Shown here piece after piece: positions 1,237 through 37,949 of a stretch of 40,880 nucleotides of DNA. A model generated the notes under the pieces. That model saw only the letters and a list, made by a program, of their open reading frames with translations. It did not search any database and had not been told where the DNA came from. Source of the stretch: a virus (lineage: Duplodnaviria > Heunggongvirae > Uroviricota > Caudoviricetes); the IMG/VR virus record IMGVR_UViG_2563366819_000005; one strand, 5' to 3'. The number at the start of each line of letters is the position of its first letter. Position 1 is the first letter of the stretch. The position numbers and the translations under genes were made by a program.

Positions 1237-1237
1237 A

Positions 1238-1453
1238 TCATGAGTCTTTGATAAACTGATTTATCTTTGGATAGTTGTACCAGATAATCCCTCGTTTGCT
1301 GTCTGGCTTACCTAAAGGAGATACTCGTTTGAAGTGGAAGCCCTCCACCCAACAGTTCTGGCGGTATGCTTCAATTTGTCTGGCCCCCAGACCAGTGCGA
1401 AGCATCAGGCCGTATTCAACCATCCACTCTTCATTAAAGATTACTTGTGCCAT
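1238..1453 (-). CDS. ydaQ: Excisionase-like protein (YdaQ/XisR-like, 71 aa)
   Basis: Small ORF immediately upstream of int on the same strand. Sequence [35 protein letters not shown]... matches my recollection of Rac YdaQ. The longest ORF has an 8-codon N-terminal extension. Confidence 0.7.
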
Positions 1454-1552
1454 CGCATCACCTCTGGCAGGCGCCAATGTTAGACTGAAATTGACGCCCG
1501 ATGTTGATTATTAATAATCAGCTATGAAGTTTTAATTTGAATACAATGCAAT

Positions 1553-1741
1553 TCACGAGGACTGAAGTTTCTCGCAATTAAAATTTATCAGTTTTACTTT
1601 CTGCTCTCTGGAAACGCCTGCTTCTTTTTTACCTGAGAGCATTTTTTCGCATTCTGATTTCGTTAGTTTAGATTTTGAATATCTTGTCCAGTTAGTAGGA
1701 GTGCCACCTTCCTTTTCAATAGTAGCGGTAATTTTATACAT
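1553..1741 (-). CDS. ydaC: YdaC-like small phage protein (start chosen at MYKITATIEKEGG)
   Basis: ORF in the Rac position between xis and lar. Start is uncertain: the longest ORF begins at 1813 and would overlap lar. Confidence 0.5.
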   Translation of the reverse strand: MYKITATIEKEGGTPTNWTRYSKSKLTKSECEKMLSGKKEAGVSREQKVKLINFNCEKLQSS

Positions 1742-1928
1742 GAACACCTCCGTTATTATTTCCAGTGGTTCGTTTATTCCATCTTTCGAGTGCTTCTCTT
1801 TCACTTCCACCATAACCGGTTCGGGATTCGCATCCGTTACACTTCGCTCGGTAATATCCTGAAATGACTTTCACCGTTACTGATGGACAACCACAAAATG
1901 GACATGGTTTAACATTGTCATATCTCAT
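1734..1928 (-). CDS. ralR: Lar/RalR restriction-alleviation protein (type I toxin RalR in K-12), 64 aa
   Basis: MRYDNVKPCPFCGCPSVTVKVISGYYRAKCNGCESRTGYGGSEREALERWNKR: Cys-rich Lar-family fold, immediately upstream of recT as in Rac. Confidence 0.85.
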   Translation of the reverse strand: MRYDNVKPCPFCGCPSVTVKVISGYYRAKCNGCESRTGYGGSEREALERWNKRTTGNNNGGVHV

Positions 1929-1984
1929 AATTTTTCTCATAAAAAATATTTCAAGTTGGCGGTGCATTACACCGCCAGGCTGAA

Positions 1985-2794
1985 TTATTCCTCTGAATTA
2001 TCGATTACACTGTATTCCCCGGTTAATACAGAGGAATCTGCAGGATCGATTGTCAGTGGTTCCTTTTCATCCATTGATACTGCACGCTGGATCTCAATTG
2101 ATACGGGCAGATATTTGAACAGGCGACGAATAGCCGTTTTCTTTGCCATTTCTTCCCAGTGAGTTACCCACGGCCCGTTATTACCAGCTTTACTCAGGCT
2201 GCGCACCAGCTCAATCTGTTTGCGCGTCATAACTTCAAACTGAGTACCTCCGTCTTTCAGTCTTGCGACAGCATAGACGTGGGTAACCGGGGCATCTTCG
2301 TTTTCTCCCGGGCGGTGTATTAACTTTTCATCAAGGCCAAATTCGAAGCTAAACTCGTCACCTTCACGGACAACACGGGCTGACAGGCTGGCGATTTGAC
2401 CAGAACGGCGAGCCAGATCAATCATGCCGCGATAGCCAATGATTAGCTGAACGTTCTTTTTACCGCTCTTTTCGTTTTTATTACCAAAAGGCAGTAAATA
2501 TGCATGACCGAGGGCGCTACCTGGCTCAAGTCCGAGCTGTGAACACTGTACGATCGCACTGACAAAACTCATAGTGTCACAGTTTCCTAACGCCGGAACT
2601 TTACGAATTTCTGTGGTGGCGATACGAATCATACGTTCAGCCGTCATATGGCGTGGAAGAGCTGCTGCCAGTTGCTCTTTCATTGATGGCTGGTTAATAA
2701 AACTAATCACGTCGCTATTTTTAACTGCTGCTGGTGCACGGTTTCCCTGAGTTTTTTGCAGATCGGCTTTTGCGATTGGTGGTTGCTTAGTCAT
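1985..2794 (-). CDS. recT: RecT single-strand annealing recombinase (269 aa)
   Basis: [50 protein letters not shown]... matches RecT. Overlaps the 3' end of recE by 8 nt. Confidence 0.95.
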
Positions 2795-5387
2795 TTGCAT
2801 ATTCCTTAGCCCAGCGGGGCAGTGATAATGTCTTAATAGCTGGCCATTCATCGGTATTCAGGCAGTCAGACAGGGTTCGCAGATTGCGGTGATATTCCTG
2901 TTGACCTGCCAGTTTTGCTTCTTCGCCCATCATGAAAATTTCAACCGGATAACGTCCGCATTCAATAGTTGTGCTGGCAACCAGAAAAACGAAAGTTGGC
3001 TGCACTCCAAACTGTGCTTCATAACCGTCACTGTAGAATGCATCCTGAACGTGATAGCGGTAGTCGTAATAAGCGGTTTTGAATCGTTGAATATCCGCCG
3101 TAGTTTTCACGTCCATGATCCAGTGAAATTCAGGGATAATTTTGTCCGGACGGCACCGACACAAAATTCCTGTTTCAGGATCTTCCCAGTAAATTGATGA
3201 TTCAGCGTGTCCGGCGCTTTCAACAAGCCATTGCCCCAGCGGCAAAGCCATAACGCTTTGATACATGAGTTCAATTTTCCGGCCTTCTTCCGCAGTGATA
3301 ACCGTTTTTCCTGTGCTTGCGCATTCCATCAGAAACGCTTTCTCTTCTTCTTTTCCGGCGTTTGTACGGCGGTTAAATTCAGGTGCTACGATAAAGCGGT
3401 TACTGAATTCTTCCGGTTCAAGTACCCGGCAGTGGAAAGCGGTTCCTAAATCGAGCGTTTTTGTCTTTGTGGTGTCCACGGGGGCATTTTTACGCCACAA
3501 ATATAGTGCCGGAGTATCAGCAATGTCATCGAGCTGAGACTTACTGACACCGGGACCCGCGTGGTAATTCTCATTCGAAATTCCGTAATAAATACCTGGC
3601 TCTATGTCTTCTACGATTACGGGATCTGCGACTTCGCCAGTTTCATCACTGCAATCGCGATGCGGATCGCTGCCAGCATTCTCATTGTGCGGATGTTCAG
3701 CGCCTTCCATTTCCTCCGGATCATTTTCCTTAGCTTCAACCTGACTCTCTTCATCGAATGTTTCCTGGTATGTTGCGTCGCCCATCACCGCACCACAGTC
3801 AGGGCAGTTATCCCCGCCAGTCTGGCCGCAGGCATTGCAGGCTATTTCCGGTTCCTGTTGCACTACTGGCTCAGGTTGATTCATATCTGGTCTGGTTTTT
3901 TCCGTTTCTGGCTGGTTCTGGTACACACAATCGCGAGTCTGGATCCCCTTTACCCATTTCGGATCGTTCGGGTCGCTAATTCCGTCAACAAATTCACCAC
4001 GTGATGCAGCAAGCAATTTATCGGCATCGACAGGATTTTTTGATGGAATGTTTTTCCGGGCTTCATGGAGTTCTGCCCGCAGTTCCTGATATTTCGCATC
4101 AACAGAATTTACCTGTGACTGAGCATCCAGCGGCTGCGTGTCCTGATGATGTTCAGTTGCGTCCGGTTCCATTGTTTCAGCCTCTCCCTGTTCAACTGCC
4201 GTTGTTCCAGATGGTTGCGGTTTTTCTTCATCATCCTGTTTTCCTTCTTCTGTTACTCGCTGCGGCATCGGGGCAGAGGAGCGACCGCAGGCAATATCCA
4301 CGATTTCCGGATCAGGGTTGGCATGATCGGTTTCAGTCAGTACTTTGTTCAGATATTCAGTGACGTGCGCGGGGATGACCTCGATCCCAATTGGTGCTTC
4401 TTTTACGGACGCAACCACGATGGCGCGGGAATAATCCAGCCCGCCAGGCATGGTGATGAATTTGTCGCGGAAAACAGAAAAGGGCGGTTTATTTTCAGCG
4501 ATAATTTCCTCAATGCGTTTAGCGTGTGCCGGATGAAGGTTATAGATGTCCAGATCCATTGAACGGGCCAGTACGCCAGTGGCTACGTCGCGCGCCAGTG
4601 ACGTCAGATCGTGTACGAAACCTTCGCCGCGATCGGTGAGGTTTCCGCCGCCAGCATTAGCACCGGAAGCCGTGCGAGTGATGTGTGAAACACGATTACC
4701 CTTCATCCACTCTTTTGTCAGCAGTCCTCGATCGGTGTAGTCAGCGTTCAGGTATGCTTCGAAAAAAGCAGTTATCAGTCCCAGGTTTGAATGACCAGGA
4801 TTAGGGAAAACTTTGTCAGTGTCACGAACCAGTTTGTGGAGATCGCGAATTTCCAGCGGGTCGAGCAGGCTGGTTTTGTGGGAAACAGCCAGGGCAGTAA
4901 CAGCCGGTAGTTCTTCAGCCCGAGCAATGTGTAATGCCTGGAGTCCGTCGCGTGAAACGTGCGTTACCGGTTTTTCGCTGCCGTGTTGAGCAAGCCAACG
5001 AATGGGCAGTTCCTGGCCAGAAATTGGGAGTAGCATATTCTCCTCAATCTCAGTCATGTCTTCGCCGTTGACGTTGGTATTGCCTTGATAGTGAGCGTTG
5101 TCTGGTGCTGCTCCCGGTTTTAGTTCCCATGTCATGGAGTCTTTGCTGAGTTGATAGCGTTCACTCCAGGTAAAATCGATCTCACCTTCAGCGGGCAGGT
5201 CATTAACGACAGGAAAATTCGTGGCAACAGCTTTAAAATAGCTGCTCAGTTTTTTACCTGACTTAACGATCAGGTAGTCCAGAGTGGCACAGGTCGATTC
5301 AAAATCGTTGCTTGCCCACAGGACGACGTCAGGTTCACCGGATGATTTTTTCGCTTTCCGTAACAGGAAGAGTGGTTTTGTGCTCAT
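2787..5387 (-). CDS. recE: RecE exonuclease VIII (866 aa)
   Basis: 866-aa ORF beginning [32 protein letters not shown], with a C-terminal nuclease region. Length and synteny with recT match Rac RecE. Confidence 0.95.
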
Positions 5388-5517
5388 TGTTTTTTAACCT
5401 CAACTCAGATTAAAATTCGTTTTGTTCAGTGAATGATCTTGCCGGATACACACTGTTCATAGCCTGCGCCATACGCAGGCTATTTCTTTCAGATTTCACC
5501 TTTTAATTTCATTGCAA

Positions 5518-5763
5518 TTAGAGTTGCCAGAAATTCGGCTTTTTTTCTGCGGGCAGATTCTTTCCGATATGCACCAGGCACATTTTTTTGACACCTTCAT
5601 CAAGTGTTTTTACGTTGCCTGATGGACCATCGATATCAACCACAGTGAATGGGGTTTCTTTATTTTCTGTTTTAATTACGTAGCCAATGCGCTTTCCTTC
5701 CAGATTCACCTCGTGAACAATGTCATCGGTAGTTACAACAGTGGCTTCATAATTGGTAATCAT
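5518..5763 (-). CDS. racC: RacC-like protein
   Basis: MITNYEATVVTTDDIVHEVNLEGKRIGYVIKTENKETPF... A strong SD (AAGGAGA) lies 7 nt upstream of the ATG at 5763. In-frame upstream ATGs at 5802 and 5811 have no SD. Confidence 0.7.
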   Translation of the reverse strand: MITNYEATVVTTDDIVHEVNLEGKRIGYVIKTENKETPFTVVDIDGPSGNVKTLDEGVKKMCLVHIGKNLPAEKKPNFWQL

Positions 5764-5837
5764 GTTTTTCTCCTTAATTAAGGTTGAGCGAATACCTGCC
5801 ATTTCTGGCATAAATTCAGTTTCGAATAGTCAATTAA

Positions 5838-6008
5838 TTAAAGTTCATGTGCCATCTGGTCTTTTTCGGCACAAGCTTCACTGCAATATTTTCTCGGTTC
5901 GTCTTTTGATAAAATCCCGTGCATGAAGTGAAGCATTCTTTCAATAGCTTTGCTTTCTTCAACGTCTTTTTTGCAAAGGTGGTAAGCACATTTTATTTTC
6001 TTAGTCAT
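5838..6008 (-). CDS. ydaE: YdaE-like zinc-binding protein (56 aa; below the ORF-track length cutoff)
   Basis: Hand-translated from the minus strand: [56 protein letters not shown]. Its ATG overlaps the kilR stop (TGATG). Confidence 0.75.
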   Translation of the reverse strand: MTKKIKCAYHLCKKDVEESKAIERMLHFMHGILSKDEPRKYCSEACAEKDQMAHEL

Positions 6009-6229
6009 CACCATGACTCCGCCTTTACAGGTAAACCATCACGACCGAGGAAGACTTTAATCATGCGGTCAGTAATGCATGTTTTTGTGGTCAGGTTACG
6101 AATATATAGTTTTCGCTTTTTAATATTGTTTGCCGAGGCAATATATGTCCGGCCTTCATGAAGAACATAATCGCCAGGAGTCACACACTGACGTGGTATT
6201 TCATCAGTTCCGAAGTGATGTGCAATCAT
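6008..6229 (-). CDS. kilR: KilR cell-division (FtsZ) inhibitor, 73 aa
   Basis: [77 protein letters not shown] lies 8 nt upstream of the ATG. Confidence 0.85.
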
Positions 6230-6670
6230 AATTATCTCCATTTTTACAAATGAACTTTGTTGATGCGGTGCCTGGTGCCTCCAGGTGACTGCAACCAGTT
6301 AACAATTACAGTCGGCTTTCCCACCCAAACCAATAAGGACTAACATGACTTTTAACTGTGCCACGTGCGCTTAGCCGCATTCACCGCATCACAAAATTCA
6401 CTTTAAAAAGGGCGGACATCAGCCGAACTTCAAGAAAAAAACTGATGCCGCCAGGACTACACACAGCAATGTCGTTATTTACAACCGGAGGCGCACTCCC
6501 ACCATTTAAATTTAACAGACAAGACCGACTCTTTATGGATATCGGAAATGCGCCTTCGTGTTGTGCCCGGTTTTATTTCACCACCTCCGGGCTTCGGTGG
6601 TCTCGGCTATACCCCTACAGCGAGAGCTTGTGTTAACATTTCAATACCCTTACAGTTGAGAGTTATTGAT

Positions 6671-7159
6671 ATGTTGGATGTATTTACTCCATTGTTGAAA
6701 CTTTTTGCTAACGAGCCACTCGAAAGACTTATGTATACGATTATCATTTTTGGTCTCACTCTCTGGCTGATACCGAAAGAGTTTACTGCCGCATTCAATG
6801 CTTATACTGAAATACCTTGGCTCTTTCAGATTATCGTTTTTGCCTTTTCTTTCGTGGTCGCCATTTCCTTCTCAAGATTGCGAGCACATATTCAAAAGCA
6901 TTATTCATTACTACCAGAGCAACGAGTATTGCTTCGTTTATCTGAGAAAGAAATCGCTGTATTTAAAGATTTCCTTAAAACAGGAAATCTTATTATCACT
7001 TCTCCTTGCCGTAACCCGGTTATGAAAAAATTAGAACGGAAGGGCATCATTCAACATCAGAGTGATAGCGCAAACTGTTCTTATTATCTCGTCACCGAAA
7101 AATACTCCCATTTTATGAAGTTATTCTGGAACAGCAGGAGTAGACGTTTTAATCGTTAG
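6671..7159 (+). CDS. sieB: SieB superinfection exclusion protein (162 aa, membrane)
   Basis: MLDVFTPLLKLFANEPLERLMYTIIIFGLTLWLIPKEF... with hydrophobic segments. Start chosen at the internal ATG of the longer ORF. Confidence 0.8.
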   Translation: MLDVFTPLLKLFANEPLERLMYTIIIFGLTLWLIPKEFTAAFNAYTEIPWLFQIIVFAFSFVVAISFSRLRAHIQKHYSLLPEQRVLLRLSEKEIAVFKDFLKTGNLIITSPCRNPVMKKLERKGIIQHQSDSANCSYYLVTEKYSHFMKLFWNSRSRRFNR

Positions 7160-7311
7160 CTTACTGTGTGCTTCTCCAACCATCGGCGCGCACCAGTTTC
7201 GGTTTTAAATGTTTTGCTTTTGGTATACGTCATGGCAGTGAACGTTCCATCCTGGTTGGGGAACACGCCGCACACCAGGGATTCGTTGTTGCCGAGGTCG
7301 ATTTTTTGCAT
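7156..7311 (-). CDS. ydaF: YdaF-like small protein (51 aa)
   Basis: Hand-translated: MQKIDLGNNESLVCGVFPNQDGTFTAMTYTKSKTFKTETGARRWLEKHTVS. Convergent with sieB. Confidence 0.55.
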   Translation of the reverse strand: MQKIDLGNNESLVCGVFPNQDGTFTAMTYTKSKTFKTETGARRWLEKHTVS

Positions 7312-7321
7312 TTTGCGAATC

Positions 7322-7456
7322 TCACATCTTGTTGCTACGTATAGCGACTTCTGCCTGCCAGAGATCCCAGTCGTTGCTGCGTAAAGCCTGCACAGCCTGG
7401 TTGTAAGTGATACCGCAACAATCCATCAAATACTGAACTACTTCGTAATGCACCAT
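7322..7456 (-). CDS. ydaG: YdaG-like small protein (44 aa)
   Basis: Hand-translated: MVHYEVVQYLMDCCGITYNQAVQALRSNDWDLWQAEVAIRSNKM. Lies immediately upstream of ydaF on the same strand. Confidence 0.5.
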   Translation of the reverse strand: MVHYEVVQYLMDCCGITYNQAVQALRSNDWDLWQAEVAIRSNKM

Positions 7457-7625
7457 CTTATCTATCCCCTTAACGCCGGGTGGCGGAACTAACTGCTGCA
7501 CTGCAAAATTTGAATCCCGCCGTCATGTTCATACGCCTCGGGCTGGCTACTTAACCCCTGACCACTGCCTGGTAACTCGAAGTATTGCCCGGCGTTCTGT
7601 GGGGCGGGGTGGGTTGGTAGGTATA

Positions 7626-7670
7626 TAATGTACTTTGTGTTCATTATTGTAAAGTACTTTAAGTACATTT
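7626..7670. promoter_or_regulatory. OL-like operator cluster: GTAC-core sites (aatGTACttt, perfect palindrome AAAGTACTTT, aaGTACatt) over a candidate leftward promoter
   Basis: Three related sites within 45 bp at roughly 24-bp spacing. On the minus strand TTTACA and a TATATA/CATTAT -10-like element fall in the same stretch. Located just past the 3' end of the repressor gene, upstream of ydaG. Confidence 0.4.
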
Positions 7671-7743
7671 TATGTATAAAAAAATGAGACGGGATAAAGT
7701 GAAGCACAAACCCGGAGGGGGACGCTACCGGATTTATGCTGGT

Positions 7744-8163
7744 TTAAGAGGCTTTTTGTTTTTTCTTTCGTGCTAACTCTTCGTAAATTGCATTGTACTT
7801 CTGTTTTTTCTCCTCAAGAGTTTTTAAAAGTTCATCTGTCTCACTGTCAGGGAGCTCGTCCAGAAGGTCAATGATGATTTTTTGTCTTGGATTTAACTCC
7901 TGATAGAAACGTATCTGTCCACTTTCTTCTGTATCCTCTCCCAAAAGATAGGTTGGTGTTGTTCCAATGAGTGTTGCTAATTCCCTTAATTTCTCTCGGC
8001 GAGGAATTGTTTCACCATTAAACCATTTGCTAACCGCTTTTGGTGTTAATTTCATTCGACGGGCAATTTCTGCCTGCCTTCCATGTTGTTCATAACCAGC
8101 GTTTTCACAGGCTAGCGCAAGCCTACTGGCGAACTCTTTACGCGCTTTATCTTCATGAACCAT
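7744..8163 (-). CDS. racR: CI-type prophage repressor (XRE-family HTH), RacR-like
   Basis: HTH segment GRQAEIARRMKLTPKAVSKWFNGETIPRREKLRELATLIGTTPTYLLG. Divergent from a Cro-like gene and syntenic with Rac racR. Exact identity to K-12 RacR not verified. Confidence 0.65.
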   Translation of the reverse strand: MVHEDKARKEFASRLALACENAGYEQHGRQAEIARRMKLTPKAVSKWFNGETIPRREKLRELATLIGTTPTYLLGEDTEESGQIRFYQELNPRQKIIIDLLDELPDSETDELLKTLEEKKQKYNAIYEELARKKKQKAS

Positions 8164-8184
8164 AAGTTCAATGATATTCGCTCT

Positions 8185-8220
8185 TGAATGTACTGTCAGT
8201 TCTGTTATAGCATGTACTCA
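8185..8220. promoter_or_regulatory. OR-like operators between divergent repressor and ydaS: two aTGTACt sites 24 bp apart
   Basis: gaATGTACTgt (8186-8196) and gcATGTACTca (8210-8220) share the GTAC core with the sites at 7626-7670, in the 79-bp divergent intergenic region. Confidence 0.4.
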
Positions 8221-8242
8221 AAGTTCACATTGTGAGGGTGAT

Positions 8243-8497
8243 ATGAACCAGAAAACACTTGAAGATGTAATCAAAACTGTTCGCGTTTCTGTTGTGGCCG
8301 ACGTTTGTGGTGTCAGCCAAAGAGCAATCTACAAATGGATGGATAACGGAAAATTGCCTCGCACAGAATATACCGGCGAAACAAATTACGCTGAAAAAAT
8401 CGCTCATGCATCAAACGGATTATTTTCTGCCGATGCAATTTTAACTATTGGCAGAAATAAAACTACTACGAAAAAGCTGATGGGAGTTGATTCATGA
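8243..8497 (+). CDS. ydaS: YdaS-like Cro/CI-family DNA-binding protein (putative toxin or antitoxin)
   Basis: Divergent from the repressor and translationally coupled (ATGA) to ydaT. GAGGGTG SD before the ATG at 8243. The longest ORF starts at 8171. Confidence 0.65.
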   Translation: MNQKTLEDVIKTVRVSVVADVCGVSQRAIYKWMDNGKLPRTEYTGETNYAEKIAHASNGLFSADAILTIGRNKTTTKKLMGVDS

Positions 8498-8916
8498 AAA
8501 TCAAGCATGAGCACATCGAATCAGTGTTGTTAGCCCTGGCAGCCGAAAAAGGGCAGGCGTGGGTCGCTAACGCAATTACTGAAGAATATCTGCGCCAGGG
8601 GGGCGGCGAATTGCCCCTGGTACCAGGCAAGGACTGGAACAATCAGCAGAATATCTATCATCGTTGGTTGAAAGGTGAAACGAATGCGCAAAGGGAAAAA
8701 ATTCAGAAACTGATCCCTGCGGTTCTGGCAATTCTTCCTCGCGAGCTGCGTCACCGACTCTGCATCTTCGATACCCTGGAACGCCGTGCATTACTGGCGG
8801 CACAGGATGCACTGAGTACGGCAATTGATGCGCATGATGATGCAGTCCAGGCCGTTTACCGTAAAGCACATTTCAGCGGCGGCGGTTCTCCTAGCGATTC
8901 TGTCGTAGTGCATTGA
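8494..8916 (+). CDS. ydaT: YdaT-like protein (140 aa)
   Basis: MKIKHEHIESVLLALAAEKGQAWVANAITEEYLRQGGGELPLVPGKDW... 140 aa, as for Rac YdaT. Confidence 0.8.
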   Translation: MKIKHEHIESVLLALAAEKGQAWVANAITEEYLRQGGGELPLVPGKDWNNQQNIYHRWLKGETNAQREKIQKLIPAVLAILPRELRHRLCIFDTLERRALLAAQDALSTAIDAHDDAVQAVYRKAHFSGGGSPSDSVVVH

Positions 8917-8960
8917 TTGAAATTAATCGTACCGAACTGTTTTGTTCGGTATCAGTTAAA

Positions 8961-9380
8961 TGTAACGCTGCGAGCGTTACAAGGTGAAAACAAATGGCTT
9001 CAAACTGGATAAAGCTCGAAGTTATTACGCCGGATAAGCCGGAAATATTCAGGCTTGCTGAGATTCTGAATATTGATCCAGATGCCGCATTAGGGAAAGT
9101 CATTCGCTTCTGGGCATGGGCGGATCAACAAATGATAGACGGTAACGCAGAGTGTAACGCTCGCGGCGTTACAAAAAGTGCAATAGATCGCATCACTTTT
9201 ATGGCTGGTTTTGCTGATGCGTTAATTCAGGTTGGATGGCTGGTCGAAACTAATGGTGTGTTGTCGCTTCCTAACTTTGAGCGCCATAACGGGAAAAGCT
9301 CTAAAAAACGGGCGGTTACAAACGAGAGAGTAACAAAAATACGAGAACTGAAACGAAAAGGTAACGCTGCCAGCGTTACA
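8961..9380. repeat. Three copies of the palindrome GTAACGC-N5-GCGTTAC (8961-8981, 9153-9173, 9360-9380) plus degenerate half-sites; candidate replication-origin iterons
   Basis: Exact 7-bp inverted arms with a 5-bp spacer, three times within 420 bp: one just upstream of ydaU and two inside its coding sequence. Followed by a purine-rich direct repeat (gaggaagagaaa) encoding EEEKEEEKEED. Confidence 0.5.
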
Positions 9381-9794
9381 AAAACGGATCAAAAAGCGTT
9401 ACCAGAGGAAGAGAAAGAGGAAGAGAAAGAGGAAGATATAAATACTTATCTCCCCCTAAATCCCCCTCGCCAAAAACGAGCGTCTAAAAAATTCGAACCG
9501 GAGGCTATCGAGCTGCCTGACTGGTTGCCGGAAACACTCTGGCATGAGTGGGTTCAGTTCAGGCAGGCATTGCGAAAACCGATTCGAACGGAGCAGGGCG
9601 CTAACGGGGCGATACGGGAGCTGGAAAAATTCCGCCAGCAGGGTTTTTCACCTGAGCAGGTGATTCGACACAGCATCGCCAACGAATACCAGGGCTTGTT
9701 CGCGCCGAAAGGTGTTCGACCTGAGACGTTACTCCGACAGGTTAACACCGTCTCGTTACCGGATAGTGCGATCCCGCCAGGCTTCAGGGGGTAA
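8994..9794 (+). CDS. ydaU: YdaU-like replication initiator / replisome organiser
   Basis: Upstream of a DnaC-like gene. N-terminal region followed by an acidic EEEKEEEKEE linker. Contains the iteron-like palindromes, analogous to lambda O. Confidence 0.75.
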   Translation: MASNWIKLEVITPDKPEIFRLAEILNIDPDAALGKVIRFWAWADQQMIDGNAECNARGVTKSAIDRITFMAGFADALIQVGWLVETNGVLSLPNFERHNGKSSKKRAVTNERVTKIRELKRKGNAASVTKTDQKALPEEEKEEEKEEDINTYLPLNPPRQKRASKKFEPEAIELPDWLPETLWHEWVQFRQALRKPIRTEQGANGAIRELEKFRQQGFSPEQVIRHSIANEYQGLFAPKGVRPETLLRQVNTVSLPDSAIPPGFRG

Positions 9795-9800
9795 CTGACC

Positions 9801-10547
9801 ATGAAAAATATTGCGACAGGCGACGTTCTTGAACGTATCCGCAGACTGGCCCCGTCACATGTAACCGCGCCATTCAGGACGGTAGCGGAGTGGCGCGAGT
9901 GGCAACTTTCCGAAGGCCAGAAACGTTGTGAGGAGATCAACCGTCAGAATCGTCAGTTGCGGGTGGAAAAAATTCTGAATCGCTCTGGCATCCAGCCATT
10001 GCACCGCAAATGCTCGTTTTCGAATTACCAGGTGCAGAACGAAGGGCAGCGATACGCGTTGAGTCAGGCGAAATCCATCGCTGATGAACTGATGACCGGG
10101 TGTACAAATTTTGCGTTCAGCGGAAAACCTGGTACCGGGAAGAACCACTTAGCGGCAGCTATCGGGAATCGCCTGCTGAAAGACGGTCAGACAGTGATTG
10201 TGGTTACCGTGGCTGATGTTATGAGTGCCCTGCACGCCAGCTATGACGACGGGCAGTCAGGCGAAAAATTTTTGCGGGAACTGTGCGAAGTGGATCTGCT
10301 GGTTCTTGATGAAATTGGCATTCAGCGCGAGACGAAAAACGAGCAGGTGGTACTGCACCAGATTGTTGATCGCCGGACAGCGTCGATGCGCAGCGTGGGG
10401 ATGCTGACAAACCTGAACTATGAGGCCATGAAAACATTGCTTGGCGAGCGGATTATGGATCGCATGACCATGAACGGCGGGCGATGGGTGAATTTCAACT
10501 GGGAGAGCTGGCGTCCGAATGTCGTCCAGCCAGGAATTGCGAAGTAA
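9801..10547 (+). CDS. ydaV: DnaC-like helicase loader (AAA+ ATPase), YdaV-like, 248 aa
   Basis: Walker [16 protein letters not shown] and Walker B LLVLDEIG. Adjacent to the initiator gene. Confidence 0.9.
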
Positions 10548-10569
10548 TTTTTACCGGGAGAAAAATTTA

Positions 10570-11331
10570 ATGGAGACTGTTTTTGACGTACTGAAAGCAA
10601 TGGGAAAAGCCACATCCATAGAACTTGCTGCGCGACTTGATATCAGTCGTGAAGAAGTGCTGAACGAACTATGGGAACTGAAAAAGGCTGGTTTCGTTGA
10701 TAAAAGCGCGTACACCTGGCGTGTGGCTGATAACAACGTTCAGCAGGAACAGCCAGCGCCGGCAGAACTGCCGGAAGAAACTACCACGGCAACAGTCGCG
10801 AAAATTTCAGAGAGCGATTTAACTGCGACGATTGAACAACGTGGACCACAAACGGCGGATGAGCTGGCTACATTGTTTGGTACCACATCACGCAAAGTGG
10901 CTTCAACGCTGGCAATGGCAATCAGCAAAGGTCGTCTGCTTCGCGTAAATCAGGGCGGTAAATTTCGTTACTGCATACCGGGCGATAATTTACCAGCAGA
11001 GCCGAAAGCAGCATCGGTAGCGGAAACTGCTGGTAAGGCCTTTCCTCAGCCCGCAGGTGTTGCGTTACCAGTACAGGAGGCTGCAACACAGGAAGATATT
11101 AAAACAGAAACTGTGGCGGACATTGTGCAGTCGCTGCCATCGTTTACTGAAACGCGAGCGGATGACCTGGTTTTACCATCACTGCATATGGCAAACCGCG
11201 AACTGCGTCGGGCGAAAAATCATGTCCAGAAGTGGGAGCGTGTCTGCGCCGCGCTGCGGGAGCTGAACAAGCACAGGGATATTGTACGACAGATTACTGA
11301 TTCTTCCCGCCATGTTGCATCGGAAAAGTGA
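10570..11331 (+). CDS. YdaW-like phage protein with winged-helix-like segments (full length here)
   Basis: [45 protein letters not shown]... GGGAG SD upstream of the ATG at 10570. Confidence 0.55.
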
Positions 11332-11346
11332 TTGCCGGAGGCACCT

Positions 11347-11778
11347 ATGGCAAAAGTATTTACACCAGAAGAGCGGGAAAAAATTAAAGGGCAGGTTGTT
11401 GAACTTGTACGTCTGAGCGGTCGCGAGACGTTACGGGCTCTGGAGGCTAAAACCGGTGCATCAAGGTATTACATAAGCACTCTCGCCAGAGAACTGGTCG
11501 CCAGTGGTGATGTTTACAATTCAGGCTACGGATTATTCCCGTCTGAGCAGGCTCGTAAGGACTGGCAAAACGCCCGCAAAAAACTATCCAGGGCAAAGGT
11601 GAAAAAAACGGTTGTGGTTGATCCTGACCTTATCTGGTCATTACCAGACGGAGAAATACGCCGCTACGACAGGCGCCTGAATATAATCTGTCGCGAGTGC
11701 CGGAAAAGCGAAGTTATGCAGCGTGTACTGGCATTTTACCAGAGTAATTTCAGGAGGTTGTCTGGTGAGCACGATTAA
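11347..11778 (+). CDS. Hypothetical phage protein (143 aa)
   Basis: ORF with GGAGG SD 6 nt upstream of the ATG at 11347. No family recognised. Confidence 0.45.
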   Translation: MAKVFTPEEREKIKGQVVELVRLSGRETLRALEAKTGASRYYISTLARELVASGDVYNSGYGLFPSEQARKDWQNARKKLSRAKVKKTVVVDPDLIWSLPDGEIRRYDRRLNIICRECRKSEVMQRVLAFYQSNFRRLSGEHD

Positions 11779-11803
11779 CTACTAGGGGGGATAACAATAA
11801 AAT

Positions 11804-11823
11804 AAAGCCTCCTAGGAGGCTTT
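11804..11823. terminator. 20-bp perfect palindrome AAAGCCTCCTAGGAGGCTTT; candidate bidirectional terminator between convergent genes
   Basis: Perfect inverted repeat flanked by A/T-rich sequence. Contains the stop codon of the methyltransferase gene. Confidence 0.4.
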
Positions 11824-12852
11824 GATTATATTAAGCAAATGTTTTCCAATCGTTTCAGACATCTTCGGAGGGACCGCATTTCCTATTTGACGAGCCCGAG
11901 ATTGCAAAGAACCAATAAATTTATAATCCAAAGGAAATGTTTGTAGACACGCTGCTTCACGAACCGATATTGCTCGATTTTGTGTTGGATGTCCAAAACG
12001 TCCATTTGAATAGCTAATACAACGAGTTGTTAGTCCGCTGGCTGGTTTGTCCCAACTCAAACGTCCATATACGTCTGTATGCCCTTTATGGTTACGATGG
12101 CATTCTAAAATCAATTCATCTGGCCAAAATTCTCGACTTCCACCTTCAGGAGTGCATTTTATTCTACGTAAATTAAGCTCTGATAAGCGTGCAGCTTCAT
12201 GATCAGGAATACTATTATGCTTTTCTCCTGCTTCTATCTTCGGTAAATTAGCGATCCAGTCCTTTACTGTTGAATAGGGAGTATTTCCAACCCCATGTGT
12301 AGGAGAAGGCAATGCGACATAAAAATCCTTGGATGCAATGAGCACTAATCTTTCTCGCGTCTGTGGTACACCGTACCACGCAGCTGGCATTACTTTATAA
12401 TCTACACTATATCCCTTTGATGAAAGCATTTCTAAAAACATCATGAATGTTCCTTCATTTTTGTTAAACTTTTGCATTCCTGGCACGTTTTCAACAAAAA
12501 TAAAATCAGGCATATAATGCTCTACAAAGCGACTGAATTCCTTTAATAGATCTAATCGTGGATCATCATTTTTCTTATTTGAGTTTTGCTTAGAGTACGG
12601 TTGACAAGGCGCACATCCTGAAAAAAGAATGTAATCATTACGATGTTTTTTTACTAACTTGTTTATGGCATTGTTGTCGATTAACCTAATGTCCGAGTTA
12701 ATAAAAGCAGCCTGCGGGAAATTTGCACGAAATGAACTGGCTGCATCAACGTCGAAATCGAGGCCAAAAACAATATCCATTCCAGCTTGATGGAAACCTT
12801 GGCTGGTTCCACCACAACCGGAAAAGAAGTCAAACACTTTGATTTTTTTCAT
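11812..12852 (-). CDS. DNA (cytosine-5)-methyltransferase (346 aa from ATG at 12852)
   Basis: C5-MTase motifs in order: FDFFSGCGG (motif I), GCAPCQPYS (motif IV PCQ, catalytic Cys), FVENVPGM (motif VI ENV), QTRERLVLIA (motif VIII), GNAVPP (motif X). GAGGG SD before the ATG. Confidence 0.85.
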   Translation of the reverse strand: MKKIKVFDFFSGCGGTSQGFHQAGMDIVFGLDFDVDAASSFRANFPQAAFINSDIRLIDNNAINKLVKKHRNDYILFSGCAPCQPYSKQNSNKKNDDPRLDLLKEFSRFVEHYMPDFIFVENVPGMQKFNKNEGTFMMFLEMLSSKGYSVDYKVMPAAWYGVPQTRERLVLIASKDFYVALPSPTHGVGNTPYSTVKDWIANLPKIEAGEKHNSIPDHEAARLSELNLRRIKCTPEGGSREFWPDELILECHRNHKGHTDVYGRLSWDKPASGLTTRCISYSNGRFGHPTQNRAISVREAACLQTFPLDYKFIGSLQSRARQIGNAVPPKMSETIGKHLLNIIKAS

Positions 12853-12875
12853 TTTTCCCTCTGCATCCAGAATCA

Positions 12876-14705
12876 CTACCTAATGATACCACGGTCAAGA
12901 GCCTGAGTAATTATTTTTCTTATTTTTATAAATTCAGGCAATTCATTTTTAAGTCTTGCGGTCATCATTTGTTGGAGGCAAAAAATTTCCTCTGCATTTA
13001 CTTCTTCTTTATCATACAGGTGTTGCGCTAATAATCTTATTTGATTCTTATACAGTTCTGGATCATTAGAACTCCAGGTCTGTGAATCAATTATTTCTTT
13101 TTCACTTGGCGTAATTGCCTTTTCAATGAGTAATTGTTCGGGAGTATCAAATGGTAAATACTGCACTTTATTGAATGCATACTCAAGCACTTGCCTTTTG
13201 AGTCTATTAGATTCTTGTTCATTTTTTTTGCCATTACTACCACTGGCATTGATAATTAACTCGCAACCATAATATTTGCACATTGTATTAACTAAATCAG
13301 CATCAGCAATTTCACTAATTCTTACTGGTTTTATTTTTTTGTTTTTATCACCATCAAGTAAAAACAAAATATCATTGCGTTCTACCACAGCGTAACTGGG
13401 AAGATGCTTGCTTAAAATGGTCTCCGAACCACCTGGTATATAACTTACACTAAATGATAAGCTTAATCTTTCATCATTTTTAATCGCTTTATCTATAATT
13501 GCTTTAGCTAATTTATCTTCTACAATTATTGTTTTCTTGTTAATATCATGCCCTAGCTCTATAAAAGCTTCATCCGGTGCTATATTTTGAACTATTTTAG
13601 CTGTTTCACTCTCTTCATCAAAAACAAATAATTTAATGGCATCTTTGGGAAGAGTGTTCACAATAACAGGAGAATGGGTTGATATTACCACTTGATGTTT
13701 TTTCTGCTCAACAATAGAGTACAGAACATCCATCATCCTTTTTTGTGCACCAGGGTGAAGTGAAACTTCTGGTTCGTCAAGAAGAATTAATGAATTAGGT
13801 TTGGCCGAATAAATATTGAGTATTAGTGAAACTATTGCAAATTCACCACTTCCAGCAAACGCTTCTGTATAGTTCAACTTATCAGTTGAAAGTAAAGCGG
13901 TTCCTCCTCTGGTTCCAAATAACCGATGCTCAAGAAATTTAATGACTTTATATTTTTTCCCTAATATAAATGAGACGTGCTCAACTAGTTCTGGCGCCAA
14001 GGTTATATTTTTAACAATGGTTTCCGCCCCCCAGAGTCTTAAATTACTTAGCTTTTCATCAAAAGCTTTCTTTATATATTTAGATTTGCTTCTGATATAG
14101 TCTTGCTTTGTAATTAATACACCACTCTTCTTCTTTCTTAATTTAAAATCAGAGTGATACATACATCTATCAAATGCACTTATTTCCGATCTGAAATCTA
14201 GGAAAACCAATCCCTTCTTGATTTTTTTCCATCTGGTTGCATTACTATTAGCACCCAGATCATCCGAAATACTCTCCATGTTATCACCAACAGATGGTCG
14301 ACTTGTTTCCCAATAATCGATTGTTTTCTTGGTAGCATTGATACGTGCTTGGAGTATTTCAACTAAACGGCCATCAGCATTTTTATATCCATATATATAT
14401 CTAGGTTTAAGAGAACTGCCATCAGCAAGTTTTAGGTCAGGAAACTCATCTGTTTCAGTTGTGAACCAATAACGAGTTATATTTTTACCATGTGGGCAAC
14501 CAAATAGCGCTTTGATAACAGAACTTTTATTAGTTCCATTTTTTCCTACTAAAGCCGTTATAGGGAACTGAAAATCGATCCTTGCATTCTGCTCTATATT
14601 TTTAAAGTATGGAAAACGGATATGTTGTATGAATGGTTCAAATTCACCGTTTTTTAACGCGCACTGGAGTGTTCGAATTTTGCTCTTGTATGCGGAAGTG
14701 CTCAT
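12876..14705 (-). CDS. OLD-family-like protein: N-terminal ABC-type ATPase plus putative C-terminal TOPRIM nuclease domain (609 aa)
   Basis: P-loop ALVGKNGTNKSS (GxNGxxKS type as in RecF/OLD), Walker B SLILLDEPEVSLHP, H-loop ISTHSP. C-terminal IIVEDKLAKAII followed about 55 aa later by LFLLDGDKN, resembling the TOPRIM Glu and DxD motifs. Visibly AT-rich. Confidence 0.65.
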   Translation of the reverse strand: MSTSAYKSKIRTLQCALKNGEFEPFIQHIRFPYFKNIEQNARIDFQFPITALVGKNGTNKSSVIKALFGCPHGKNITRYWFTTETDEFPDLKLADGSSLKPRYIYGYKNADGRLVEILQARINATKKTIDYWETSRPSVGDNMESISDDLGANSNATRWKKIKKGLVFLDFRSEISAFDRCMYHSDFKLRKKKSGVLITKQDYIRSKSKYIKKAFDEKLSNLRLWGAETIVKNITLAPELVEHVSFILGKKYKVIKFLEHRLFGTRGGTALLSTDKLNYTEAFAGSGEFAIVSLILNIYSAKPNSLILLDEPEVSLHPGAQKRMMDVLYSIVEQKKHQVVISTHSPVIVNTLPKDAIKLFVFDEESETAKIVQNIAPDEAFIELGHDINKKTIIVEDKLAKAIIDKAIKNDERLSLSFSVSYIPGGSETILSKHLPSYAVVERNDILFLLDGDKNKKIKPVRISEIADADLVNTMCKYYGCELIINASGSNGKKNEQESNRLKRQVLEYAFNKVQYLPFDTPEQLLIEKAITPSEKEIIDSQTWSSNDPELYKNQIRLLAQHLYDKEEVNAEEIFCLQQMMTARLKNELPEFIKIRKIITQALDRGIIR

Positions 14706-14853
14706 TGTTTACTAAAGTCCATAATAGGCTATTAACAGGTTGAGGATGACATGATAACGATTTTTAATGCAGATAAAAGAGGTTTGTTGGTTAGCACACA
14801 ACAGAAAAAGTGACCTTACCGCTTGAACGAAAGGTAAGGGTAAGTAGGCTGTG

Positions 14854-15006
14854 ATGCAGCAAAAGACGATGTTAATCGCCCTGATTGTCATCTGTATTAC
14901 CGTCGTTGTGATGGCACTGGTAACAAGGAAAGACTTCTGCGAGGTACAAATCCGAACCGGTCAGACGGAGGTCGCTGTCTTCACAGCTTACGAACCTGAG
15001 GAGTGA
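14854..15006 (+). CDS. Hok/Gef-family type I toxin (HokD/RelF-like, 50 aa)
   Basis: Hand-translated MQQKTMLIALIVICITVVVMALVTRKDFCEVQIRTGQTEVAVFTAYEPEE, closely resembling HokD/RelF as I recall it. Single transmembrane helix plus conserved C-terminus. Confidence 0.75.
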   Translation: MQQKTMLIALIVICITVVVMALVTRKDFCEVQIRTGQTEVAVFTAYEPEE

Positions 15007-15013
15007 GAGACCA

Positions 15014-15035
15014 GGCGAGGGAGAAATCCCTCGCC
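15014..15035 (+). other. Stem-loop GGCGAGGGA-GAAA-TCCCTCGCC just 3' of the hok-like ORF (hok mRNA 3' structure)
   Basis: Perfect 9-bp stem with a GNRA tetraloop 8 nt after the stop codon. No U-tract follows. Confidence 0.4.
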
Positions 15036-15471
15036 ACCTCTGATGAGTCAGGCATCCTCAACGCACCCGCACTTAACCAACTTTGGCGGGTATATTTTAT
15101 CTGTGAATATTTTTATAAAAATAATGCCCACGCACAGCATAAAACAAAAAGTATTATAGATAAAAAAGGAACGTAATGTGCAGATTTGTTGTTTTCCATA
15201 TTTACTCACCTTAATATGATTAACCCTAATAGGGTTGTTATTTCAGCGGTTTTCAAATGAGATATTATGGTGATCTGGCAGATTTGCATAACATTAAAAT
15301 TTAATTTGTTTAACCGCTTTTAATAATAAGCGTTGTTTGTATCCCAGCAATCTGTTGTTTGGTTTTTATTCCATTAAGGTGGGGCTTTACACTGGAGCCA
15401 GTTTATTTATACTTCATACGTCAGCCTGAACAACTGGCATCTGCTGCGCTGCGCCATCGAGAGATTAAGAA

Positions 15472-16071
15472 ATGGCGCATATACAACTGGTCAAACAAAC
15501 CTCTTCCGGATTACTTCTCCCGGCGACGCCGGAGAGTTGTGATTTTCTGCATCAAATCAAAATAGGCGAGTGGATACACGCAGACTTTAAGCGTGTGCGT
15601 AACAACGCATTCCACAAGCGTTTTTTCAAACTCCTGCAACTGGGATTCGATTACTGGACTCCGGTCGGTGGGGCGATCACGCCTCGCGAACGAGAACTGC
15701 TGTCTGGTTTCGTTGATTACCTGTGCGAATCAGTTGGTCGGGAACACACGCCAGCCCTGAGTGATGCCGCAGAGCAATATCTGAATACAGTTGCGACACG
15801 CAGAACCCGGGATACGGCATTGCTAAAGTCGTTTGAGGCTTTTCGCGAGTGGGTAACCATTCAGGCCGGATTTTACACCGAGCATATTTATCCGGACGGT
15901 AGCCGTGGGCGTCGGGCAAAATCCATCGCTTTTGCGAATATGGACGAAGTCGAGTTTCAGCAGGTTTATAAATCTGTACTGAATGTGCTGTGGAACTGGA
16001 TTCTGTTCCGTAAATTCTCCTCTCAGGAGGAAGTTGAAAATGTGGCCGCACAACTACTGGAGTTTGCGTAA
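15472..16071 (+). CDS. Nin-region-like phage protein (DUF1367-like), 199 aa
   Basis: Position and coupling (TAATG overlap with the next gene) typical of lambdoid nin-region genes. Family assignment from memory only. Confidence 0.5.
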   Translation: MAHIQLVKQTSSGLLLPATPESCDFLHQIKIGEWIHADFKRVRNNAFHKRFFKLLQLGFDYWTPVGGAITPRERELLSGFVDYLCESVGREHTPALSDAAEQYLNTVATRRTRDTALLKSFEAFREWVTIQAGFYTEHIYPDGSRGRRAKSIAFANMDEVEFQQVYKSVLNVLWNWILFRKFSSQEEVENVAAQLLEFA

Positions 16072-37700: not shown

Positions 37701-37949
37701 CCGGAAGCTATTATGCCATTAACACGAACTTCCGATGGTTCTCTTGGTGTCAGAGCTATTAATAGTAAAAGTGGTAATGGAGGCGGAGATATTACCTATG
37801 CCCCTGTATACCAAATCACTATTCAAAATGACGGCCAGAATGGAGAGATTGGCCCTCAGGCAATAAAAGCACTTATGGGGATGGTTGATCAGCGGGTGCA
37901 GGGCAATCTGTTAAATATGCGACGTGATGGGGGAATGTTAAGTGGCTAA
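34716..37949 (+). CDS. Tail tape measure protein (1077 aa)
   Basis: Very long helix-rich ORF between the G/GT and M genes. Confidence 0.9.

Follow-up and report, generated by a model that had tools for sequence, protein, structure and literature searches.

The 40,880-nucleotide viral DNA stretch IMGVR_UViG_2563366819_000005 (referred to in full as the window) is a lambdoid prophage of the Rac type that has integrated at ttcA, and on its minus strand, between positions 11812 and 14705, it carries two closely spaced genes, one for a predicted ATP-dependent nuclease of 609 amino acids (aa) and one for a C5 cytosine DNA methyltransferase (MTase) of 346 aa. The initial annotation, made from sequence alone, had reported two minus-strand open reading frames (ORFs) of these lengths with 23 nt between them, and direct reading of the junction gives exactly this arrangement. 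The nuclease gene (12876..14705, minus strand), recognised from its ORF, Pfam and PADLOC matches and a structural model, ends in a TAG stop at 12876–12878, which is followed by the 23-nt intergenic spacer tgattctggatgcagagggaaaa (12853..12875, minus strand), with a GAGGG Shine-Dalgarno sequence 5 nt upstream of the ATG of the MTase gene (11812..12852, minus strand; stop at 11812–11814; WP_000721512.1). The MTase ORF as a whole spans 11812..12876 (minus strand) and could encode 354 aa if it starts at a GTG or 346 aa if it starts at the ATG at 12852, the latter being the start used by the Prokaryotic Genome Annotation Pipeline (PGAP).

The 609-aa protein is named 'ATP-dependent nuclease' by PGAP (WP_000107696.1). 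Its first 375 or so residues (13581..14705, minus strand) form an ABC-ATPase portion, with matches to the Pfam models AAA_21, AAA_15 and SMC_N over aa 26–364, and contain a Walker A motif (GKNGTNKS, G54–K60), an ABC signature (AGSGE, A284–E288), a Walker B motif (LILLDEPE, D310/E311) and an H-loop (THSP, H344). No Pfam TOPRIM model matched the protein; residues 386–609 (12879..13550, minus strand) nonetheless correspond to a TOPRIM domain and helical extension, with the TOPRIM glutamate in IIVEDK (E396/D397), the DxD motif in LLDGD (D451-G452-D453), and two further conserved residues, E523 and K553, in the C-terminal helical part. The P-loop, Walker B, H-loop, TOPRIM Glu and DxD motifs picked out by the initial annotation are thus all present, and in an alignment of 61 homologues every motif residue is invariant or nearly so (K60, A284–E288, D310/E311, H344, E396, D397, D451, D453, E523 and K553 are invariant). 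Among 96 non-redundant family members the same residues are at least 95% conserved, regardless of the type of partner MTase. Other conserved residues, specific to this family, are W80, F81, T83, D86, E133, R158, D179, Y252 and H260.

The TOPRIM fold proposed in the initial annotation agrees with these invariant acidic residues and with structure prediction. A full-length AlphaFold (AF2) model, with a predicted local distance difference test score (pLDDT) of 86.7, has the Thermus OLD protein (6p74) and Gabija GajA as its best solved Foldseek matches, and also matches PtuA and SMC heads. When the C-terminal domain is modelled alone (pLDDT 95.6), the best matches are OLD, AriB and retron TOPRIM nucleases, specifically BpOLD, AriB, TsOLD and the retron Eco2 TOPRIMs, with the helical extension included. 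At the sequence level, the best solved relatives over the ATPase part are OLD 6p74, AriA and PtuA. The features that characterise the OLD superfamily – N-terminal ABC-ATPase motifs and a C-terminal TOPRIM with Glu, DxD and helical extension – are all found, and on the modelled structure we place the protein among the OLD-family ABC-ATPase/TOPRIM nucleases, its activity being predicted. The family is large: at 50% identity (E <= 1e-30) it divides into about 552 clusters, whose members are almost all close to 600 aa in length and occur in Proteobacteria, Actinobacteria, Bacteroidota and Firmicutes.

The 346-aa protein matches PF00145 over the whole profile (E 4.9e-61), scores 166 bits against TIGR00675 (dcm; cut-off 100.65) and matches the PADLOC model MTase_II at 1.3e-96. 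The canonical C5-MTase motifs noted in the initial annotation are readily confirmed: landmarks of all ten are visible in the translation, among them FSGCGG (motif I), PCQ (IV), ENV (VI), QTRER (VIII), REAACLQTFP (IX) and GNAVPP (X). Judged by its sequence this is a complete C5-MTase, of the kind that provides the site-specific modification enzyme of a Type II restriction-modification (R-M) system. Its best solved sequence relatives (for 11815–12852) are eukaryotic DNMT1 catalytic domains (E ~1e-38), followed at a wide distance by M.HaeIII and M.HhaI (1e-20 to 1e-14) and DNMT2 (5e-11), and several members of its clade are named 'DNA (cytosine-5)-methyltransferase 1' by JGI. A 63%-identical relative is labelled 'M.HgiDII' by similarity, and GTCGAC is the only, weak lead for a target. 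The domain identities and the intactness of the catalytic residues are established for this pair, and sequence comparison indicates purifying selection on the two enzymes.

Linkage of the two genes across phyla

The nuclease family was surveyed by a combined pattern and tblastn search of one genome per species, using only the ATPase alignment as the query, and the six-frame ORFs of the 80 loci recovered were then searched with the window MTase for a partner within 6 kb. In these loci the nuclease is 33–63% identical to the window protein, and the hosts include Gamma-, Beta- and Alphaproteobacteria, Actinobacteria, Bacteroidota, Firmicutes, Acidobacteria, Myxococcota and others. In 74 of the 80 loci this partner search finds a C5-MTase inside the 6-kb limit, and in 59 it is directly adjacent on the same strand, downstream as in the window in 43 and upstream in 16. 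Fourteen loci have the MTase upstream with one or two genes between, one has it on the opposite strand, and one has it downstream of a broken nuclease ORF. No MTase was found within this distance in six loci, four of which are contigs that end at or near the nuclease gene. C5-MTases are uncommon, and by our rough estimate one would turn up in a 12-kb interval by chance with a frequency of about 1% or less. The homologues bear out the pairing that the initial annotation had singled out as the point to check.

The same association is seen in other samples. Among 64 IMG/VR viral contigs, the MTase is beside the nuclease at every locus that is not cut at the gene. In 5426 complete Escherichia coli genomes, the nuclease gene is present in 32 and the MTase gene in the same 32; a second E. 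coli allele, about 39% identical, gives 8/8 concordance (40/40 over both alleles), and a third is paired again. With concordance perfect in both sets (32/32 and 8/8), a comparison of MTase-only with nuclease-only E. coli genomes cannot reveal directionality. The genes are also tightly spaced: where the gene order is that of the window (62 non-identical loci), the median spacer is 10 nt, 18 pairs overlap (spacer −4 or −1) and 37 are separated by 0–30 nt. Gene content beyond the pair is heterogeneous: the 102 flanking ORFs contain 108 Pfam families, not one of which recurs in more than five loci, so that the conserved unit is the pair itself. The operon structure and a near-obligate linkage that crosses phyla are thereby established.

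The two partners differ in how they diverge. Within the architecture class of the window, the MTase is 50–71% identical to that of the window whereas the nuclease is 33–41% identical, an asymmetry that resembles, by analogy, that of classical R-M pairs, in which the MTase is the better conserved. At least eight C5-MTase lineages, less than 45% identical to one another, serve as partners of the nuclease family. Only four nuclease residues are specific to MTase lineage among the 96 non-redundant members, and with the catalytic residues at least 95% conserved throughout, the nuclease seems to lack a specificity module that switches with the MTase. The neighbourhoods that receive the pair include prophage moron slots and defence-type regions with Type I HsdR, GmrSD and integrases, and on these comparisons the pair moves horizontally as one unit.

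Additional genes accompany the pair in a minority of loci. Of 150 loci, 21 (14%) contain a further gene of restriction type and the remaining ~86% contain none, which leaves the TOPRIM protein as the only nuclease candidate beside the MTase in most loci. In 23 loci there is also a mismatch endonuclease, Vsr, and its presence argues that the MTases methylate DNA in vivo. A protein combining GHKL and Hypoth_Ymh domains (HATPase_c_3 + Hypoth_Ymh) occurs in ten loci, and a GHKL plus His-kinase protein together with a receiver-domain protein in four; these lie between or beside the MTase and nuclease genes, and between them in 10 to 16 of the surveyed loci (L070, 4306–5955; L078, 1358–5958; also L024, L059–L061, L066, L071, L073, L076, L079, L081, L134 and L065). 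They have the architectures of the putative restriction enzymes R.NmeAIP and R.EcoUTORF4938P listed in REBASE (PMC2441816), and suggest that three- or four-gene variants of the system exist.

A few loci are decayed, and anecdotally the nuclease is the gene lost: its ORF is disrupted beside an apparently whole MTase ORF in E. coli EC11 and at L009, L131 and L148, and the reverse is seen once, in a metagenome-assembled genome (MAG; L030). In EC11 (NZ_CP027255.1, 4653520–4656414) the nuclease gene aligns over 1828 nt to the 1827-nt query and is annotated as two products, suggesting a 1-nt indel, and the adjacent MTase is still annotated as a single product; to judge from the sequence, EC11 may carry a natural nuclease-null allele.

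Prophage setting and flanking elements

Annotation of a matching genome gives the left-arm prophage genes in the order intR, xisR, recET, kilR, sieB, racR, ydaS/T/U/V, DUF1627 and DUF977, and places hok and then the nin-like genes DUF1367, DUF1364 and DUF1133 after the cassette. The cassette occupies a slot with the replication module (ydaU/ydaV, DUF1627, DUF977) on one side and the nin-like genes on the other, and the AT-rich block that the initial annotation described there is evident from a GC content of 0.34–0.38 across approximately 12000–15000, compared with about 0.50 on both flanks. The left arm (1–11800) contains the usual Rac accessory genes, including the ralR toxin gene, rcbA, recET, racC, kilR, sieB and the toxin-like ydaS and ydaT. 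Beyond the cassette the window continues into lysis and structural genes, and in contrast to Rac of strain K-12 it includes both a lysis cassette and the full set of structural genes, with ORFs as long as 1077 aa, the largest of which (34716–37949) probably encodes the tape measure protein; the prophage may for this reason be intact.

The cassette is rare: it is found in only 32 of the 5426 complete E. coli genomes, while the adjacent DUF1627–DUF977 module is present at 9242 places in 4265 genomes, which marks the cassette as cargo and not as part of the phage core. The exact cassette is also carried by the common laboratory strain E. coli ATCC 8739 (NZ_CP043852.1, 1004746–1007639), and each exact cassette protein is on at least 1000 contigs. 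All three E. coli alleles are in moron slots of lambdoid prophages, antisense to the neighbouring phage genes, one slot lying after DUF977 (as in the window) and the other between the Q antiterminator and holin genes. The slot after DUF977 carries different cargo in related prophages. In strain HN68 (L153; NZ_CP141844.1, locus coordinates 6099–9172) it contains genes for a TetR regulator, an adenosine deaminase, a non-canonical purine NTP pyrophosphatase and a SIR2-family protein, a cluster that looks like defence-type cargo; in strain BAA-2469 it contains queH and hokD. The cassette is known from prophages and uncultivated viral genomes (UViGs) only, and there is no DNA or protein match to it in 50,697 INPHARED phage records. 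A tblastn search of 72,556 plasmids gave one distant full-length match, in Clostridium, and essentially none otherwise among the matches listed.

At the far end of the cassette, a terminator scan finds, as a pattern match only, a bidirectional terminator-like hairpin (AAAGCCTCCTAGGAGGCTTT; 11803..11824, both strands) that overlaps the MTase stop codon and has T/A runs on both sides, and is predicted to close the cassette and to end the converging DUF977 transcript. A promoter scan gave sites no more numerous than in shuffled sequence, and we claim no promoter. At the other end, directly upstream of the nuclease gene, divergent from it and within the same AT-rich block, is a Hok/Gef type I toxin gene (14851–15006, plus strand; PF01848, 1e-21) with a leader region at about 14706–14850. 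A putative antisense Sok-type RNA would run toward the nuclease start, and transcription of the cassette could be entangled with hok/sok; an Rfam search of 11500–15600 gave no match to sok or to other RNAs. A 59-aa ORF at 14712–14891 (minus strand), directly upstream of the nuclease and antisense to hok, is not annotated by PGAP in identical genomes and is probably spurious.

Comparison with known defence systems

The closest PADLOC match of the nuclease is HEC-04 (1.7e-34, 117 bits), although this covers only aa 232–459 against positions 160–383 of a 494-position model. It is followed by the retron I-B ATPase-Toprim model (2.8e-26) and then by AriA, PtuA, Old and GajA, whose matches fall in the Walker B region. 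For this protein every NCBIfam equivalog falls well short of its cut-off (PtuA, 53 bits against 500; MAD3, 37 against 420). HEC-04 (Hma-embedded candidate 04) is an experimentally validated single-gene ABC-ATPase–TOPRIM defence against T4 and T5 that requires the Walker A Lys and the TOPRIM E/D/D residues (bioRxiv 10.1101/2024.01.29.577857), and IbfA, encoded by a 1557-bp gene, is its plasmid homologue. Like the protein described here, both are single polypeptides with an ABC ATPase at the N terminus and, at the C terminus, an OLD-like TOPRIM with E...DxD residues; they differ in acting alone, whereas the present family, at about 600 aa, is nearly always accompanied by a C5-MTase. Full membership of the protein in the HEC-04/IbfA group seems doubtful: the profile match is partial, no enterobacterial (IbfA-type) plasmid match was seen among the matches listed for the 72,556 plasmids, and the conserved MTase partner contradicts the single-gene definition.

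OLD proteins are otherwise classified by context, as stand-alone proteins such as P2 Old and Thermus OLD (Class 1), or with the UvrD-like helicase GajB (Class 2), with a retron reverse transcriptase (RT) and msr/msd noncoding RNA (Class 3), as the split PARIS proteins AriA and AriB, the latter a DUF4435 TOPRIM (Class 4), or with a membrane protein in the archaeal Cran1 system (Class 5). The ABC-ATPase and TOPRIM architecture is shared with these proteins and the whole-chain fold matches 6p74 and GajA, but identity to solved OLDs is about 13% and the conserved partner is a C5-MTase, a context outside the five. A stand-alone assignment does not agree with the MTase partner found at 74 of 80 genome loci and at every viral locus left uncut. 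Gabija is inconsistent with the downstream gene, which is an MTase, with flanks in which no helicase recurs, and with GajA hidden Markov models (HMMs) that match the Walker B region only. For retron I-B there is neither an RT ORF in the flanks in the window nor an Rfam match in 11500–15600, and the profile match to its ATPase-Toprim reflects shared architecture only. As to PARIS, the AriA HMMs match only aa 198–350, and the AriA structure in the PDB only over about 65 residues (1e-05). Septu (PtuAB), MADS, Hma, DISARM and Druantia II do not fit either: the PtuA and MAD3 models score far below their cut-offs, and the systems' partner genes (the PtuB HNH gene; mad1-8; the Hma helicase gene; those for DrmA/B/C; those for DruE/F/G) are absent from the window; the DrmMII and DruM profile matches of the MTase are generic C5-MTase similarity. 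WonAB of Vibrio cholerae WASA-1 is a different system, with an OLD-ABC ATPase, a separate PD-(D/E)xK nuclease and no MTase.

The pair also departs from the familiar forms of R-M. A Type II system would have an endonuclease of a known restriction endonuclease (REase) fold, whereas the partner here is an ABC-ATPase/TOPRIM protein. The logic we consider below is closer to that of Type III and Type I systems, in which the MTase both marks self and gives the target to an NTP-dependent nuclease subunit itself devoid of specificity, encoded with it (as here) in a two-gene operon; Res and HsdR, though, combine a superfamily 2 (SF2) helicase motor with a PD-(D/E)xK nuclease and work with N6-adenine MTases, as opposed to an ABC-ATPase motor, a TOPRIM nuclease and a C5-cytosine MTase, and a complex of the two cassette proteins is hypothetical. 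GHKL-type 5-methylcytosine (m5C) restriction proteins (R.HgiDII, R.NmeAIP and R.EcoUTORF4938P) are, similarly, large ATP-binding partners of C5-MTases without a classical REase fold (PMC2441816), but they have a GHKL and not an ABC ATPase, have no TOPRIM, and occur neither in the window nor in most loci. R.HgiDII itself, considered because of the name of the MTase relative, is described as GHKL plus an unknown domain (Orlowski & Bujnicki 2008, PMC2441816) and is not a member of the ATPase–TOPRIM family. Finally, OLD-ABC/TOPRIM modules embedded in BREX and related systems are interpreted as back-up effectors (PMC12839542); these and PARIS likewise attach an OLD-type ABC ATPase and TOPRIM to methylation-based immunity, but in multi-gene systems with N6-adenine MTases where they are read as anti-restriction sensors, while here the nuclease and the C5-MTase stand alone.

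Our literature search found no MTase-linked OLD class, although an ABC-ATPase classification outside its reach may already note such neighbourhoods. In full-text searches no paper contained the two NCBI accessions (WP_000107696.1 and WP_000721512.1), the terms 'ATP-dependent nuclease' and 'DNA cytosine methyltransferase' were nowhere brought together with this meaning, and no paper combined TOPRIM, REBASE, m5C and restriction endonucleases. In agreement with the initial annotation, the pair is not Gabija, PARIS, Septu or DISARM, but the nuclease is no complete stranger either, given its PGAP name and the partial match to HEC-04. An OLD-family, HEC-04-like nuclease with a conserved C5-MTase partner falls outside current class schemes and defence catalogues, and the pair corresponds to no named system among the resources searched.

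A possible ATP-dependent restriction system and its alternatives

We tentatively propose, at a little under even likelihood, that the two genes constitute one mobile, R-M-like defence cassette with an unusual effector. What leads us to this reading is the near-obligate, operonic and horizontally co-transferred pairing, the scarcity of any other nuclease in the loci, the R-M-like asymmetry in conservation, the co-occurrence of Vsr, the lack of a specificity-switching segment in the nuclease, and the precedent for defence set by HEC-04, with the asymmetry of decay as anecdotal support. The initial annotation had likewise read the genes as R-M-like; domain identities and co-occurrence agree with it, and methylation-gated restriction is what we infer beyond them.

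On this reading the MTase would methylate a short DNA target in the lysogen chromosome and in the prophage, and so set the self-mark. The 609-aa protein would be the effector, most likely as an ABC-ATPase dimer, with ATP binding and hydrolysis licensing a two-metal TOPRIM nuclease site against DNA without the mark. Because no segment of the nuclease co-varies with MTase lineage and no DNA-reading domain is recognisable in it, site recognition would be supplied by the MTase and not read by the nuclease, much as Mod serves Res in Type III systems and PglX serves BREX. The cassette is antisense to the lytic operons and closed by a terminator, and hence would be expressed in the lysogen, where it would give protection against superinfecting phages. 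This scheme presupposes protection by methylation, DNA as the substrate, an interaction of the two proteins and phage defence as the outcome.

Several observations sit uneasily with such a role. To our knowledge, no characterised OLD-family nuclease discriminates by methylation. HEC-04 and IbfA defend without an MTase, by an abortive or toxic route. A classical cognate REase adjoins the MTase at some loci, of the HpaII family at L067 and L069 and of the SmaI family at L011, L038 and L020, where the TOPRIM protein is at most a second effector; it need not be the cognate restriction enzyme in every locus. One of only two uncut loci without an MTase (L065, 4295–5484, from an uncultured Actinomycetota MAG) has the nuclease next to an AspBHI-type enzyme (RE_AspBHI_N + Mrr_cat), which depends on 5mC and is of the opposite polarity toward methylation, and at L043, which likewise lacks an MTase inside the 6-kb limit, there is an HNH protein together with Vsr. 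Divergence of the nuclease and the MTase is only moderately correlated (Spearman 0.41), and there is no MTase–nuclease fusion among the top 150 family representatives (maximum length 699 aa). The order of the genes is also awkward for a temperate phage entering an unmethylated host, as the nuclease gene comes first and the window has no controller protein. P2 Old and PARIS AriB, moreover, cleave tRNA and not DNA (PMC12445682, PMC11464382).

A different view takes the nuclease as an autonomous abortive-infection effector comparable to HEC-04, IbfA, P2 Old and PARIS, with the MTase as an accessory. Its ABC ATPase would sense a phage protein or replication intermediate and its TOPRIM domain would cut host tRNA or DNA and stop growth, while the MTase, instead of setting a self-mark, would act as an antitoxin-like stabilising or silencing partner or would shield the phage from host restriction. 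We consider this doubtful, as it leaves unexplained why the partner is only ever a C5-MTase, is kept in more than 90% of loci across phyla with translational coupling, and is catalytically complete, often with Vsr nearby; a purely phage-serving anti-restriction MTase would not, in addition, persist in the many chromosomal loci that are not prophages. The version raised in the initial annotation, an orphan anti-restriction MTase beside an unrelated abortive-infection gene, is very unlikely in view of the near-constant co-occurrence. Coincidental travel of two unrelated cargo genes could draw on their position in a hotspot occupied by different cargo in related prophages, but when the genes are linked at 74 of 80 independent genome loci from many phyla, each of the three divergent E. 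coli alleles is paired, the frames overlap or nearly abut and concordance in E. coli is 40/40, it has hardly any probability left and is effectively refuted by the co-occurrence survey.

Two further explanations take the link with C5-MTases at face value. The nuclease might be a guard, or back-up layer, for m5C R-M systems, in which the OLD-type protein would keep watch on either the C5-MTase or the state of methylation and act as a suicidal second line, possibly triggered by phage S-adenosylmethionine (SAM) lyases, MTase inhibitors or cytosine-modified phage DNA, in the way that PARIS responds to the anti-restriction protein Ocr. The 21 of 150 loci in which the pair stands beside a complete or putative restriction unit (M+R of HpaII type, SmaI type, or GHKL-type R.NmeAIP/R.EcoUTORF4938P) are what this would lead one to see, and there are parallels in the BREX-embedded modules read as back-up effectors (PMC12839542) and in HEC-04 itself, which was found embedded in the methylase-containing Hma system. 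It seems unlikely all the same, given that some 86% of loci have no first-line restriction enzyme to back up, that we can name no trigger, and that the association is with one MTase chemistry (C5) and not with restriction systems generally. Alternatively, the nuclease could have no part in defence and, like Vsr, limit the damage done by C5-MTases, clearing trapped covalent MTase–DNA complexes or mismatches. A link specific to C5-MTases of many lineages, the recurrence of Vsr as a neighbour and the pairing of an ABC ATPase with TOPRIM in RecF/RecR repair all fit with this; yet most genomic C5-MTases do without such a nuclease, the family is patchy, mobile and situated in prophage moron slots and defence neighbourhoods, and its nearest profile relatives are defence effectors, so that we think it quite improbable.

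In its boldest form, which is possible rather than probable, the proposal makes the pair a new kind of ATP-dependent R-M system in which the C5-MTase gives both the self-mark and target recognition to the OLD-family nuclease. The nuclease would then be the first TOPRIM-fold restriction nuclease as far as we have found, and the pair, spread over many phyla and borne by lambdoid prophages of E. coli, would represent a sixth, MTase-linked context class of OLD proteins, a group whose classes are set by partner genes and which is a current focus of phage-defence research. Annotation pipelines would split the pair into a 'HEC-04-like / ATP-dependent nuclease' and an 'orphan or Type II MTase', and the unit would go unnoticed. 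It is compact, at two genes and about 3 kb, and its presence in exact form in E. coli ATCC 8739 makes it experimentally accessible. Should the MTase gate the nuclease, restriction enzymology would gain a sixth nuclease fold and a tractable model of an ABC-ATPase 'sensor' coupled to an epigenetic self-mark; should the MTase instead be the silencing or bait partner of an abortive tRNase, the pair would reveal a new regulatory logic for OLD proteins.

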